Below are positions 41,875-45,803 of a DNA stretch of 64,000 bases, one piece after another; the stretch's first letter is position 1, and the number at the start of each line of letters is the position of its first letter. Source of the stretch: a virus (lineage: Duplodnaviria; Caudoviricetes); the IMG/VR virus record IMGVR_UViG_3300032250_000184, positions 1-64,000 of that record; one strand, written 5' to 3'. The translations under genes were made by a program, and so were the position numbers. The notes below the pieces were generated by a model. The model worked only from the letters and a program-made list of their open reading frames with translations, searched no databases and was not told where the DNA came from.

Positions 41875-42186
41875 TTAGCCTGTAATTAAAGATTTGGTTG
41901 GCGGAAGAACGATACCAGAACCAAAAATTTGATTGTAGTTTGTAATAAAATCTTCCGCAGGAACATAGGAGTATACTACATTCTTCTTAGCTAAGGCAAC
42001 CAGTGCATTTGATTTTTGTTCGGCATGAATGGGAAACGGTGCGAATCCAACAGAGGGTTGGCCATCTTTACCACGAACCACGGCAATACCAACAGGATTA
42101 ACTATTACAAATTCGGTTTCAGATTCAGATTCAACTTCTCCAAGAACATCTTCACCGGTTATTAATTTAAGTGCTAAAACTTTCAT
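41875..42186 (-). CDS. conserved Sm-like-fold T4-type protein
   Basis: LKLITGEDVLG; resembles 60038..60415. Confidence 0.55.
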   Translation of the reverse strand: MKVLALKLITGEDVLGEVESESETEFVIVNPVGIAVVRGKDGQPSVGFAPFPIHAEQKSNALVALAKKNVVYSYVPAEDFITNYNQIFGSGIVLPPTKSLITG

Positions 42187-42207
42187 TATACTATCTCCAT
42201 TTTTGAT

Positions 42208-42281
42208 TGGTTGCGGATCCTGGAGTCGAACCAAGAACTGAGGATTATGAGTCCTCTGTGATACCTTTTCACCAACCCGCT
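42208..42281 (-). tRNA. tRNA-Met(CAT), initiator-like acceptor stem
   Basis: A1:A72 mismatch, GCGGG/CCGC-A-CCA, loop CT-CAT-AA, TTCGACT. Confidence 0.85.
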
Positions 42282-42288
42282 ATATTTT

Positions 42289-42528
42289 TTAACCGTAAAT
42301 AAAAATTACTTCGTTGATAGGAACAACATATTGTTCATCTTCAACTTTTACCGCTTTGTTCCAATTTAAGAGCAACTCATCACCAATTGAAACCTCATCG
42401 ACTTTAGGACCAAGAGCAACAACTACAGCTCGATCAGGTTCTTCTGTCCACTTTAAAATGATTCCAGACTCGGTTTGTTTTTCTGCTGCAATTCGTGTTA
42501 CAATAATGTTATCTCTTAACGGTTTCAT
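42289..42528 (-). CDS. GroES-like co-chaperonin (gp31-like)
   Basis: KPLRDNIIV, ESGIIL, VVALGP, VSIGD. Confidence 0.85.
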   Translation of the reverse strand: MKPLRDNIIVTRIAAEKQTESGIILKWTEEPDRAVVVALGPKVDEVSIGDELLLNWNKAVKVEDEQYVVPINEVIFIYG

Positions 42529-42540
42529 AATTACCTTTCA

Positions 42541-42915
42541 TGTGAATTTGATGTTGCATTGTTGAGAATACTGTTTCGTGTTTAAAAGATTCTGGCCTGT
42601 GCTGGTTAACCCAGTCATTGCACGGATCTTTCCTCAATCGCATCGTTTACTCGGCATCAGCGTTCCGATATTTCCCAGATTTTGGGCTGACTTAACAAGG
42701 ATAGTTCACTTCCCTAACAGTTGGGATTGCTTACTCTTTCGCTCACATTCTCAACAATGCTCTCTGTCCCTAAACAGAGAACTTTGTGTCTTGTTACTTT
42801 TGGACGACAATCCTCAGGCCTGAATGAGGATACTCGGACACGGCCATTCGTCTTTGTATTTTTAGCCTGTTTGTGCATAACAGAATAGGGATTATCTGTC
42901 ATAGGCATGGCACCT
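42541..42915 (-). ncRNA. candidate large structured ncRNA directly 3' of tRNA-Gly
   Basis: 14-bp perfect inverted repeat 42556-69/42747-60 plus several hairpins; GC-richer than its flanks. Confidence 0.55.
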
Positions 42916-42920
42916 CTGTT

Positions 42921-42994
42921 TGGAGCGGGATGTCAGAATCGAACTGACAACGAAAGGTTGGAAACCTTTAGTTTTACCATTAAACTAATCCCGC
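42921..42994 (-). tRNA. tRNA-Gly(TCC)
   Basis: GCGGGA acceptor, U73-CCA, loop TT-TCC-AA. Confidence 0.92.
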
Positions 42995-42995
42995 A

Positions 42996-43130
42996 TTAAT
43001 CTTTATCTTTTCTTGCTTTTTTCTTTGCTTCTAATCTATCTAATAAATCTAATAATTCTTGTTTTGTTAATGTTCTACCCCAGCTAGATGTTGTTGTGTT
43101 TGCTTCAGGAACATCTTTAACTTTTTTCAC
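42996..43130 (-). CDS. small hypothetical protein (44 aa, GTG start)
   Basis: Manual translation VKKVKDVPEANTTTSSWGRTL... Confidence 0.4.
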   Translation of the reverse strand: MKKVKDVPEANTTTSSWGRTLTKQELLDLLDRLEAKKKARKDKD

Positions 43131-43133
43131 GAC

Positions 43134-43349
43134 TTATTCTGTAGCTACTGGCTCTGCACTTTTGCCAAAAGTTTGTGTTTGTAAACGATTTGCAATAGCT
43201 CTTTTAATTTTAGAAATGTGTTTCTTACGAGCACTATCTAACAATTTTGTTAATTGAGCAATGTTCAAAGGACCTAAACGTGGCTTGCCAGTTTTGGTCA
43301 ACATAGGATTTGCTTTACGAGTTTTTTGATTTGAACCTTTTCCTGCCAT
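43134..43349 (-). CDS. small basic hypothetical protein
   Basis: AAGGA SD; K/R rich. Confidence 0.6.
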   Translation of the reverse strand: MAGKGSNQKTRKANPMLTKTGKPRLGPLNIAQLTKLLDSARKKHISKIKRAIANRLQTQTFGKSAEPVATE

Positions 43350-43375
43350 AATATTTTATCCTTTAAACTAAAATT

Positions 43376-43442
43376 TGGAGCGGTGGTCTGCTATGCTCAG
43401 ATAATTCAAGAGGGTATCTCAAATCGTACTATTACACACCGC
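43376..43442 (-). ncRNA. non-canonical tRNA-Gly-like RNA (67 nt)
   Basis: GCGGTG/CACCGC-U-CCA acceptor, mini D-arm, loop AUACCCU, T-loop AGCAUAG. Confidence 0.7.
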
Positions 43443-43510
43443 ATATCCTGCTTACCGGTTACAGGGTCACTTAATGACGGAAGTTTTGCTGTTTCACAAC
43501 AGTAAATCTA

Positions 43511-43539
43511 ATTATATACTTATCTATGATGTTTGTCAA
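43511..43539 (-). promoter_or_regulatory. sigma70 promoter TTGACA-17-TATAAT
   Basis: Perfect consensus ~70 nt upstream of the tRNA-Gly-like RNA. Confidence 0.8.
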
Positions 43540-43557
43540 TAGATAATGTGGTACACT

Positions 43558-43632
43558 TGGTGGGCCAAGATAGAATTGAACTATCACTCCATCGATTATG
43601 AGTCGATTGCTTTACCATTAAGCTACTGGCCC
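43558..43632 (-). tRNA. tRNA(CAT), probably Ile2 (lysidine type)
   Basis: GGGCC acceptor, A73, anticodon arm ATCGA-CTCATAA-TCGAT like bacterial tRNA-Ile2. Confidence 0.8.
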
Positions 43633-43633
43633 C

Positions 43634-43708
43634 TGGTCCGGCTAGCAGGAATCGAACCCACATTAAGGGAGTAGAAATCCCCTGTATTATCCATTATACT
43701 ATAGCCAG
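43634..43708 (-). tRNA. tRNA-Arg(TCT)
   Basis: Loop TT-TCT-AC, TTCGATT, CCA end. Confidence 0.9.
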
Positions 43709-43713
43709 AATTA

Positions 43714-43953
43714 TTATAGTGAAGCCACACCAAGGTGAAATGAACTTATTAGTAAATCCTTGGAAATACCACAGAGGTTCCGGCTTACCAATCCCGACCT
43801 GTTAAGGTTTAGGTGTGCTTCACTATAATAATTCTTTTTAGATTTCTCTAATCGTCTTATAGCTTTGTTACTTTTTTTATGACTCCCAGCTTTACGAAAC
43901 AATGCCAATTTGACAAGATAGTTTCGTGGTTGAGGAGTATTTTTCTTCTTCAT
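43714..43953 (-). CDS. small basic hypothetical protein
   Basis: AGGAG SD; RKAGSHKKSNKA. Confidence 0.55.
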   Translation of the reverse strand: MKKKNTPQPRNYLVKLALFRKAGSHKKSNKAIRRLEKSKKNYYSEAHLNLNRSGLVSRNLCGISKDLLISSFHLGVASL

Positions 43954-43971
43954 AATACTCTCCTTAAAAAA

Positions 43972-44046
43972 TGGTGGTAATGAGTAGATTCGAACTACTG
44001 ACCTACTCCGTATGAAGGAGTTGCACTACCGCTGTGCTACATTACC
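43972..44046 (-). tRNA. tRNA-Met(CAT), elongator type
   Basis: Fully paired acceptor, loop TT-CAT-AC, CCA. Confidence 0.88.
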
Positions 44047-44047
44047 A

Positions 44048-44138
44048 TGGAGCTCGTTGTGTAAACGGGACGGCAAACTCCGTTGTTGTTCGGCCGAGAG
44101 GATCACCCAGCCCAATCATTACACTTGATACAACAATC
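44048..44138 (-). ncRNA. 91-nt CCA-ending tRNA-like RNA between tRNA-Tyr and tRNA-Met
   Basis: Ends pair (GATTGTTGT/ACAACGAGC) followed by U-CCA; internal GC-rich hairpins. Confidence 0.6.
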
Positions 44139-44223
44139 TGGTGGGGAATACTGGGATCGAACCAGTCGTGCCGCAAGGCGGCGGATTTACAGTCCGCTGA
44201 ATCACCATTGATTCTTCTTCCCC
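44139..44223 (-). tRNA. tRNA-Tyr(GTA)
   Basis: Loop CT-GTA-AA, long variable arm, CCA. Confidence 0.92.
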
Positions 44224-44229
44224 AAAACT

Positions 44230-44306
44230 TGGCTCCCTAGCGTGGGTACGATCCACGGACCTTCTGATTAACAGTCAGACGCTACTACCAACTGAGCTAC
44301 TAGGGA
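44230..44306 (-). tRNA. tRNA-Asn(GTT)
   Basis: Loop CT-GTT-AA, G73-CCA; variant T-loop ATCGTAC. Confidence 0.9.
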
Positions 44307-44944
44307 ATATTCTTAATTACTCTACCTTTTTTCCAACCTTCAGGTATGATATCGTTCTTTTTAATTCTAATACTTTCAATTCCATTTGTGATCCACATTG
44401 TACCATATTGTGAATTGCCTAAACCTTTTTGGTGAATACTGTTTTTTTCACCTATTTTTTTCTTGGATTCTTCTTTGTGTTTTTTACCTATCCAAGAGTA
44501 AGTATCTTTCCACGTTCTTAACAAACCTTTTTTGTGTAGTTCTTTGGATTGTTTTCTATTTCTTTCAATATATTCTTCACGAAATTTTGAATCTTCATTT
44601 AATCTTTTTATTAAAGCATCACTACCTAATTTACCAATTCGTTTTCGTTGTTCGTCTGTTATATTTTTGTTTATAAAATCAAAACCACCATCACCACCTT
44701 TTTTCAAGTTGTATGTGTGTGGCCCAATTTCAACCAATTCTTTTTCTTTCTCAAACATTTCTTCGGCTGAAGAAGCTTCAAAAATAATTTCTTTAATAAA
44801 ACTATCTACACCATATTTTGATATAGCTCGTTTTAAATATTTACCGGAACCAAAATAACCATCATTTTTGTCTCTGGTTTTATGACAACCGATATAAATC
44901 TTATTGTTAATAGTATTTGTTATCTTATATACAAGGTAAAACAT
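44300..44944 (-). mobile_element. Seg-like GIY-YIG homing endonuclease inside the tRNA cluster
   Basis: LVYKITN..KIYIGCH..YFGSG..KEII; KHKEESKKKIG (NUMOD3-like); WITNG..PEGWKKGR. Confidence 0.85.
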
Positions 44945-44988
44945 ATTTTCTCCCAATTATATAATATATATAAAAGTTCGATATTGTA

Positions 44989-45059
44989 TGCTCTGTGAGA
45001 GAATCGAACTCCCATATCAGGATTACAAATCCAGCGTAATACCATTATACTAACAGAGC
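44989..45059 (-). tRNA. tRNA-Thr(TGT), no encoded CCA
   Basis: Loop TT-TGT-AA; 3' end A-TAC. Confidence 0.85.
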
Positions 45060-45063
45060 CTAG

Positions 45064-45138
45064 TGGTACACGATACCAGAATCGAACTGGTCTTACCGCC
45101 GTGAAAGGGCGGTGTCCTAACCGATAGACGAATCGTGC
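45064..45138 (-). tRNA. tRNA-Glu(TTC)
   Basis: CCGCC-CTTTCAC-GGCGG, CCA. Confidence 0.92.
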
Positions 45139-45151
45139 ATCTAAGTAAAAC

Positions 45152-45180
45152 ATTATACATCAATCCACACAATAAGTCAA
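45152..45180 (-). promoter_or_regulatory. internal sigma70 promoter TTGACT-17-TATAAT
   Basis: Upstream of tRNA-Glu; TGTTG-N8-CAACA at 45186-45203. Confidence 0.7.
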
Positions 45181-45204
45181 GCGGCTGTTGTATGGAAACA
45201 ACAC

Positions 45205-45279
45205 TGGTCGGAGTAGAAAGAATCGAACTTTCGAAATCTCGCTCCCAAAGCGAGTGACATACCACTTGCCGATACTCCG
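45205..45279 (-). tRNA. tRNA-Pro(TGG)
   Basis: CTCGC-TTTGGGA-GCGAG, C1-G72, CCA. Confidence 0.92.
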
Positions 45280-45297
45280 TTTAACTTTACAATAACC

Positions 45298-45371
45298 GGG
45301 CATCCCGTGAGAGAATCGAACTCCCGCCAAGGCGTTTGGAGTGCCTTGTGCTACCATTACACCAACGAGAA
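45298..45371 (-). tRNA. tRNA-Trp(CCA), 3' end G-CCC
   Basis: Loop CT-CCA-AA, G73; CCA not encoded. Confidence 0.82.
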
Positions 45372-45373
45372 CT

Positions 45374-45460
45374 TGGCGGAAAGTATTGGGATCGAACCAA
45401 TGCACCCATTTCTGAATGACGGTTTAGCAAACCGTTGCCTTGCCACTCGGCCAACTTTCC
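45374..45460 (-). tRNA. tRNA-Ser(GCT)
   Basis: Loop TT-GCT-AA, long variable arm, G73-CCA. Confidence 0.92.
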
Positions 45461-45466
45461 GTAATC

Positions 45467-45554
45467 TGGAGGAAGATGTGAGATTCGAACTCACGGACCT
45501 ATTACAGCCTCTAGTTTTCAAGACTAGTGCAATCGACCACTCTGCCAATCTTCC
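45467..45554 (-). tRNA. tRNA-Ser(TGA)
   Basis: Loop CT-TGA-AA, long variable arm, CCA. Confidence 0.92.
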
Positions 45555-45556
45555 TT

Positions 45557-45633
45557 TGGTGGAGGTGACAGAGAATCGAACCTGCGACCTACTGCTTGCA
45601 AAGCAGCCGCTCTACCAACTGAGCTACACCCCC
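45557..45633 (-). tRNA. tRNA-Ala(TGC)
   Basis: G3:U70, loop TT-TGC-AA, CCA; one extra nt in the T-stem. Confidence 0.9.
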
Positions 45634-45774: not shown

Positions 45775-45803
45775 ATTATATAGGATCTTTTTTGTCTTGT
45801 CAA
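45775..45803 (-). promoter_or_regulatory. tRNA-operon promoter TTGACA-17-TATAAT
   Basis: Perfect consensus with AT-rich upstream region. Confidence 0.85.

Follow-up and report, generated by a model that had tools for sequence, protein, structure and literature searches.

The minus strand of positions 42920 to 42556 encodes a non-coding RNA of about 366 nt, the first base of which comes right after the CCA of a tRNA-Gly gene. The window, that is, the whole stretch of 64,000 nucleotides analysed here, is part of a 72.7-kb IMG/VR viral record. The RNA belongs to an uncatalogued family that is specific to the tRNA arrays of uncultivated T4-like phages, and it consists of two modules: a 3′ core shared by all members and a 5′ domain that only some of them carry. 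I am confident that the family is a genuine structured non-coding RNA family. The full proposal, in which such an RNA is made by the tRNA-processing enzymes and acts in trans, is probable and no more than that; its function is unknown, and there are no data on its expression or on its ends.

The phage is T4-like, and its DNA polymerase is ~51% identical to cyanomyophage polymerases. Every gene around the RNA locus lies on the minus strand, and 14 tRNA genes were found on this strand by ARAGORN from 42208 to 45633. In the local order of transcription, there are two small ORFs of 71 and 44 amino acids (43134–43349 and 42996–43130), tRNA-Gly(UCC) (42921–42994; 68.1 bits with the Rfam tRNA model), the RNA directly after the 3′ CCA of this tRNA, a GroES/Cpn10-like gene (42289–42528; Pfam Cpn10, E = 2.8e-9; PHROG co-chaperonin GroES) whose start lies 27 nt past helix P1 of the RNA, and finally tRNA-Met(CAU) (42208–42281). 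All of them are preceded by a promoter-like site at 43511–43539 on the minus strand, which is a perfect sigma-70 consensus (TTGACA, 17 nt, TATAAT) and is known only as a consensus match. No terminator-like site was found on the minus strand between this consensus and the RNA. A second perfect consensus of the same composition (TTGACA, 17 nt, TATAAT) is located at 45775–45803 on the minus strand, upstream of the whole tRNA array. The tRNA-Met at 42208–42281, one of three CAU tRNAs in the array, has an A1-A72 mismatch and an acceptor stem resembling that of an initiator tRNA. The listed TTG start of a 119-aa ORF (41875–42234, minus strand) falls inside this tRNA-Met; the true start is probably the ATG at 42189, giving 104 amino acids. 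The product of this ORF matches phrog_527 (function unknown), and the DNA polymerase gene adjoins it. The 44- and 71-aa ORFs encode very basic proteins that matched no Pfam or PHROG family and are kept as neighbours in about one third of the loci. They were considered as partner proteins of the RNA and rejected, because they also occur in a relative lacking the RNA and are not specific to RNA-bearing phages.

A reading of the letters alone, hereafter the sequence-only reading, had placed a candidate phage RNA at 42541–42915, starting next to tRNA-Gly. The adjacency held, and the bounds were refined to 42920 and about 42556. The region is GC-richer than its flanks, as had been noticed, albeit modestly (G+C 0.42–0.44 versus 0.33–0.37 in the flanks). 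The structural features that had been listed are read here as RNA on the minus strand, which is the tRNA strand. Folding energy makes only a small contribution: the z-score is −2.4 for 391 nt, which is only mildly unusual, and that of the core is −3.05 on the minus strand versus −2.5 on the plus strand. Folding energy alone is weak evidence, and the decisive support comes from the comparative data.

The first homologues of the 205-nt core came from loci found via the neighbouring Cpn10 protein. In some of these loci the domain was in the same place, while in others it was elsewhere in the tRNA array. IMG/VR and the JGI/ENA metagenomes were scanned with sequence patterns, and the matches were screened by the covariance model R1, which was built from nine members with the helices P1, P2, P3, P3b, P3c, and P4. 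The window sequence is one of the nine seeds, and the E-values of R1 are rough. In this way, 61 distinct homologues with a core of 167–240 nt were collected from viral and metagenome contigs, and they share a conserved RNA fold, as a covariation survey of homologues would have to show if the sequence-only reading were right. The window scores 193.5 bits over model positions 1–209. Over the whole family, R1 scores range from 54 to 230 bits on the tRNA strand and never exceed 27.5 bits on its complement, and the members outside the R1 seed score 54–223 bits. Since the collection patterns demand the most conserved motifs, the invariance of these motifs is partly built in, and more divergent members were missed. 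A divergent subtype was noticed at L143:390–589 (plus strand) and L087:6705–6871 (minus strand), scoring only 46–54 bits. It has a small extra hairpin in the joining strand J1/2 and the C-G version of one pseudoknot pair (see below). In L143, the divergent copy is followed after 80 nt by a normal copy of 169 nt, and a tRNA-Leu separates the two. A pattern scan of viral contigs for relatives of this subtype returned none.

Is the RNA present in one copy, and is it found outside these phages? Each of five viral records searched in whole, including two complete genomes of 236 and 162 kb, has one copy. The 72.7-kb record of the window gives one R1 match. Two metagenome contigs (L092 and L143) have two copies each. 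Two pattern scans of about 185,000 prokaryotic species genomes found no true member; the 5′ pattern gave no match, and the 3′ pattern gave eight, all of them chance matches with R1 scores of at most 18 bits. When 42296–42995 was compared by blastn with 50,697 GenBank phage records, only the tRNA-Gly part was matched. A 105-kb relative that is 63% complete and has a cpn10 82% identical to that of the window has no copy of the RNA in the part available, and the RNA may therefore be dispensable. A full-text literature search found no paper describing the motif, and the motif is not described in the text of the catalogue of viral structured RNAs by Fremin et al. (2023).

The conserved core (42556–42760, minus strand, about 205 nt), as defined by R1 and by the pair counts, is a four-way junction of the helices P1, P2, P3, and P4 with a likely pseudoknot. 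It is closed by P1, in which the 5′ strand GCAUUGUUGAGAAU (42747–42760) pairs with 42556–42569. This is the perfect 14-bp inverted repeat that had been pointed out in the sequence-only reading, with 177 nt between the arms; by a rough estimate, the chance of a perfect 14-mer pair in 461 nt is ~4e-4. Across the family, P1 is 14–16 bp long. Covariation is seen at its outer seven pairs (for instance, with A-U exchanged for G-C, in 17 and 17 sequences), and its inner eight are almost invariant. P1 is followed by J1/2 (42727–42746), a purine-rich joining strand of 20 nt with the consensus GUG NNNN AAAGA NU AAGCAA, which is conserved in alignments A2, A5, and A8 except at the four free positions. 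A pairing partner for these four bases was sought and rejected, because they vary independently of all other segments in my reading of the alignment. The next element is the P2 hairpin, UCCC-AACUGUUA-GGGA (42711–42726), which is 100% paired with two covarying pairs, and whose loop contains ACUGUU (42716–42721), the 5′ half of the pseudoknot.

P2 is joined by J2/3 to the P3 domain (42631–42701), which forms a three-way junction with P3b (42674–42686) and P3c (42651–42668). P3 itself is a 6-bp helix of UCCUUG (42696–42701) with UGAGGA (42631–42636). Covariation was found at five of the six pairs of P3, all four of P3c, and two of the three of P3b. Directly after P3 comes P4 (42586–42630), which has the base AAGAU/AUCUU in the window and a base of the GAGA/UCUC type in the family; all five base pairs covary. 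The distal insert of P4 ranges from about 20 to 110 nt, and the 169-nt members have merely a short hairpin there. The smaller hairpins that had been picked out by eye find their places in this fold: UCCC..GGGA is P2, CCCA-AAAUC-UGGG is P3b, and CUGG-GUUAA-CCAG is the tip of P4. P4 is followed by J4/1 (UUAAACACGA, 42576–42585; family motif CUUAAACAC NN A) and then, beside P1, by AACAGU (42570–42575), the 3′ half of the pseudoknot. The P4 insert of one subtype (L007:2890–2915; L036, L047, and L028) holds CCUUAAACG, a near copy of CUUAAACAC in J4/1. It might represent a second copy of a binding site, or might have arisen by partial duplication within the RNA.

The pairs of the core were counted in model-based alignments of 33 and 44 distinct sequences. 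Paired cells amount to 95.4–95.7%, compared with 42–57% when the partners were slid along the alignment, and compensatory changes occur at 26 of the 43 pairs; none of 500 shuffles reached the observed values. By my own count, about 66 G.U cells are tolerated in the core, which would be A.C mismatches on the other strand. It should be kept in mind that, in alignments A5 and A8, the sequences were fitted to the structure of the model. From the first whole-family alignment, made with MAFFT (A2), RNAalifold gave only P1, P2, and part of P3c. This result was partial because A2 did not align the structure in the middle part of the RNA, and model-based alignment was used instead.

In the likely pseudoknot, the P2 loop pairs with the segment that immediately precedes the returning strand of P1. 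The two strands, ACUGUU and AACAGU, are paired in 99.6% of the cells and are both almost invariant. One U-A pair has become C-G in L085, L087, and the second copy of L143, and U.G in four other sequences. Since there is a single exchange of this kind between near-invariant strands, the support is thin, and the pseudoknot remains a prediction. The near-invariant joining strands, the pseudoknot, and the inner P1 together point to a precise tertiary fold or a binding site.

The 5′ accessory domain (42762–42920, minus strand, about 160 nt; alignments A6, A7, and A9) was found in 12 of the 61 distinct members. It is always fused directly upstream of the core, and it starts at the base after the CCA of a tRNA. 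Two more members, L072 and L124, retain its last hairpin only. A search for the domain without a core gave a single extra pattern match, L166, which is a chance match in G+C-rich coding DNA. In alignment A9, an unfitted MAFFT alignment of 11 sequences, the accessory helices are 97.4% paired, as against 33–48% with slid partners, and 11 of the 32 pairs show compensatory changes. The domain has three main elements, and both of the 5′ hairpins that the sequence-only reading had claimed, at 42761–42780 and 42810–42831, are present. The H1 arm (42865–42911) has a stem of 42895–42902 with 42877–42884 under two short closing helices, and both-side changes were found at 7 of the 14 pairs of its helices 1 and 2 in the 11 sequences. 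The H2 hairpin (42805–42836) is an inverted repeat, AUCCUCA/UGAGGAU. It overlaps an alternative small hairpin, GGAU-UGUC-GUCC (42802–42813), and the two are mutually exclusive. In L039, L064, L088, and L084, the small hairpin appears to be lengthened to 6–7 bp by different sequences when the alignment is read by eye. Thus, the choice between H2 and the small hairpin remains ambiguous at the level of the alignment. The H3 hairpin (42761–42780) abuts P1 without a linker and shows both-side changes at four of its eight stem pairs. The loop of H3 carries UAGGGA (42767–42772), which is complementary to UCCCUA (42886–42891) in the loop of H1. Both loop motifs are essentially invariant. Since this pairing is 97% complementary with no compensatory change, it has no covariation support, and a loop-loop contact between H1 and H3 is possible but unproven. 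L124, which lacks H1, has UAGAUA in the H3 loop, although this is one case only.

All members sit in tRNA arrays on the tRNA strand. A table of flanking genes was made for 60 distinct members. In 20 of them, the RNA overlaps the upstream tRNA by 3–4 nt, so that the discriminator base and the CCA of the tRNA are the first bases of P1; in these 20 members, the 3′ strand of P1 reads UGGN, matching the NCCA of the tRNA. Ten further members start within 9 nt of the upstream tRNA. On the other side, 28 of the 60 have a tRNA, usually tRNA-Met(CAU), that lies 0–13 nt downstream or overlaps the last bases of P1. The tRNA-Met at 42208–42281 or its homologue is the commonest tRNA just downstream of the RNA. 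The tightest case is the 169-nt member of L143, which is placed between tRNA-Leu and tRNA-Met with no linker. The neighbours vary, with Gly, Thr, Asn, Leu, Tyr, Met, and Ser tRNAs upstream, and Met, Asn, Thr, Gly, Cys, Leu, and Arg tRNAs or cpn10 downstream. Some members have no close tRNA on one side or on both; the end of an ORF or a spacer of 80–260 nt precedes them, or cpn10 follows. At 5 nt upstream of the RNA, L018 (5460–5483), L074, and L137 carry only a piece of a tRNA-Gly 3′ end, CCGCUCCA, and no whole tRNA. These fragments suggest that the RNA moves within the arrays together with the end of the upstream tRNA. Another short sequence, ACUAUAUA(A/C)U, recurs right after P1 in many members (for example, L127, L064, and L071), before a tRNA or cpn10 alike; the window lacks it. 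A late-promoter-like box of the T4 type is one possible interpretation, and an A/U-rich site of cleavage is another.

The flanks abutting tRNAs are the layout expected for an RNA excised by tRNA-processing enzymes. I propose that the RNA may be co-transcribed with the tRNAs, possibly from the consensus promoter at 43539–43511, and released by the tRNA-maturing enzymes in the manner of tRNA punctuation; both the transcription unit and the enzymes are inferred, the latter from gene order only. The cut that frees the 3′ end of tRNA-Gly, by RNase Z/BN or by RNase E plus trimming, would make the 5′ end of the RNA, and in members with a tRNA 0–13 nt downstream, its 3′ end would be generated by RNase P. 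The compactly folded RNA would then act in trans, alone or with a protein. This last step is also inferred. With a single copy per genome and no fixed neighbours, the RNA looks like a trans-acting gene product and not like a per-tRNA processing signal. Judged by its context, the RNA may serve the infection on the side of tRNAs or translation. There is one difficulty. In one third of the members, the CCA of the tRNA is paired in P1, so the tRNA and a full-length P1 cannot both survive separately, and the simple excision picture leaves these members unexplained.

It is conceivable, at a clearly lower level of confidence, that the RNA has an activity of its own, either as a ribozyme or RNase-guiding fold at the 3′ end of a tRNA, or as an RNA-only assembly like those of ROOL and GOLLD, and that it bears on the tRNA supply or on host defences targeting tRNAs. 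For an RNA-only assembly, pairing between molecules might be provided by the two complementary 5′-domain loops or by the strands of the pseudoknot, which is a possibility only.

Does the RNA instead serve the tRNA in front of it? It might be a cis-acting processing element or a self-cleaving ribozyme that frees or gates the 3′ end of the preceding tRNA, or that presents the junction to RNase P. I regard this as rather unlikely. In its favour, the start of the RNA coincides with a tRNA 3′ end or lies no more than 9 nt away from one in half of the members in the flank table (30/60), P1 pairs with the tRNA NCCA in 20 of these, with the 3′ strand of P1 covarying so as to keep the pairing, and, as is seen in catalytic cores, there is hardly any variation in the joining strands and the inner P1. 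HDV-like theta ribozymes are RNA elements located beside and behind phage tRNA genes, and they provide a precedent (PMC10879173). However, there is one copy per array of 10–25 tRNAs instead of one per tRNA, there is no fixed tRNA partner, and some copies follow an ORF or a long spacer. The Rfam models of self-cleaving ribozymes (HDV-like/theta, hammerhead, twister, hatchet, and pistol) gave no match at E-values up to 10. Theta ribozymes are small, minimal HDV-like ribozymes that fold into a nested double pseudoknot and cleave at their own 5′ end. In contrast, the present RNA is 170–240 nt in length, has its 5′ and 3′ ends paired in P1 (unlike the HDV-like topology, in my own reading), is single-copy, and is not tied to one tRNA; the HDV-type models of Rfam do not match it.

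The trans-acting RNA is also preferred over two readings that tie the locus to its neighbouring gene or to the DNA itself. A cis-regulatory leader, namely a riboswitch or thermosensor of the GroES-like gene 27 nt downstream, would fit the window, where the RNA ends just before the ribosome-binding site of cpn10, and cpn10 lies within about 260–280 nt of the centre of the element in 20 of 90 loci (24 of 90 at any distance). But the next gene is often a tRNA at 0–13 nt (28/60), cpn10 is mostly absent or elsewhere, and cpn10 loci without the element exist, which makes a leader very unlikely. Little credit can be given, too, to a purely DNA-level element in which the fold is irrelevant, such as a MITE-like insert bounded by terminal inverted repeats of 14 bp or a site of recombination located at the ends of tRNAs. 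Such an element would account for the perfection of the inverted repeat, for the different positions in the arrays of related phages (for example, L002 versus L007), and for the CCGCUCCA fragments of tRNA-Gly kept without a whole tRNA in L018, L074, and L137. It would not account for the covariation of four internal helices with G.U pairs allowed, nor for the very unequal scores of the two strands (54–230 versus at most 27.5 bits). The element is moreover single-copy, and no target-site duplication was noticed by eye in the flanks.

The sequence-only reading was correct in seeing a large structured phage RNA beside tRNA genes and in allowing for a new class, but its other option, membership in GOLLD or ROOL, was not borne out. 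GOLLD and ROOL are large ornate phage or prophage RNAs of unknown function that are common in the vicinity of phage tRNA islands, and many GOLLD members are longer than 800 nt (PMC12286853). ROOL is a large RNA with multiple pseudoknots. In GOLLD, the 3′ part is conserved and the 5′ part variable (PMC12286853), and the present RNA resembles GOLLD and ROOL in its setting and in having a universal core with an optional 5′ domain. A divergent member of GOLLD, ROOL, RNase P RNA, tmRNA, the group I introns, or the Y RNAs can nevertheless be dismissed almost entirely. At the gathering threshold, Rfam gave only tRNAs or chance-level matches in the whole window, and cmscan with all 4227 models at E-values up to 10 on 42100–43200 and on ten homologous loci gave nothing on the element. 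Thus, the element is not GOLLD or ROOL; with its 170–370 nt it is far below their size, and it has other helices and motifs. RNase P RNA was considered because of GAGGAAAG at 42629–42636, and rejected: this sequence is in a variable part that is not conserved in the family, and the topology differs. The group I intron and tmRNA models of Rfam were without a match at E-values up to 10, and ARAGORN found no tmRNA, an RNA that would also have to show a tRNA-like end and a reading frame for the tag.

A Y RNA is a similar case. YrlA has, like the present RNA, a long closing stem of both ends, conserved pairs, and a link to tRNA-like biology (PMC4201824). The YrlA model, however, matches only tRNAs, weakly, and never the element. 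In addition, the Ro60/TROVE gene is absent from five records, including two complete RNA-bearing genomes, while control genomes gave matches. As far as the Rfam models can see, GOLLD, ROOL, RNase P RNA, tmRNA, the group I introns, YrlA, and the known ribozymes are excluded.

Protein coding is practically ruled out as well. The 64-codon ORF with an AGAGGU Shine-Dalgarno-like motif that had been listed does exist (42714–42908, minus strand), and its first seven codons are similar in homologues; had the region been simply protein-coding, the RNA reading would have fallen. But among the five 5′-domain homologues examined, three meet a stop codon early in the frame (after 7 codons in L064 and L047, and after 8 in L039), there is no Pfam match for the ORF, and the substitutions track base-pairing and not codon positions. 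Thus, the ORF is not a gene.

The tRNA region of phage T4 gives rise to two stable RNAs whose role is unknown (PMC3014915), namely RNAC (species 1, 139 nt) and RNAD (species 2, 119 nt). These RNAs and the present one are alike in being non-coding, on the tRNA strand, and directly behind a tRNA. However, homology was rejected: R1 found nothing in the T4 tRNA region (68000–76000), no shared sequence was seen on reading, and only the genomic setting is common. In my own reading, T4 RNAC ends in a tRNA-like T-arm, which the present RNA does not have. The present RNA is larger than RNAC and RNAD, and has the four-way junction and the pseudoknot described above.

The present RNA is thus a further class of structured RNAs of unknown function in phage tRNA islands, and the family is new to the catalogues. 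The core of the RNA is nearly invariant across the class and probably contains a pseudoknot, and the 5′ domain is modular; the RNA itself is compact, is very well supported by covariation, and is restricted to T4-like phages of lakes and seas. In one third of the members, the closing helix uses the CCA of the neighbouring tRNA, which ties the making of the RNA, and perhaps its role, to tRNA maturation. Such a tie has not been described for the other RNA classes of phage tRNA islands. The family merits an entry in Rfam; phage genomes otherwise show an empty gap at the locus. The roles of T4 RNAC and RNAD have remained unknown for fifty years. With its 170–370 nt, the present RNA is of a size amenable to chemical probing, cleavage assays, cryo-EM, or crystallography, and it could make the roles of phage tRNA-island RNAs experimentally tractable.
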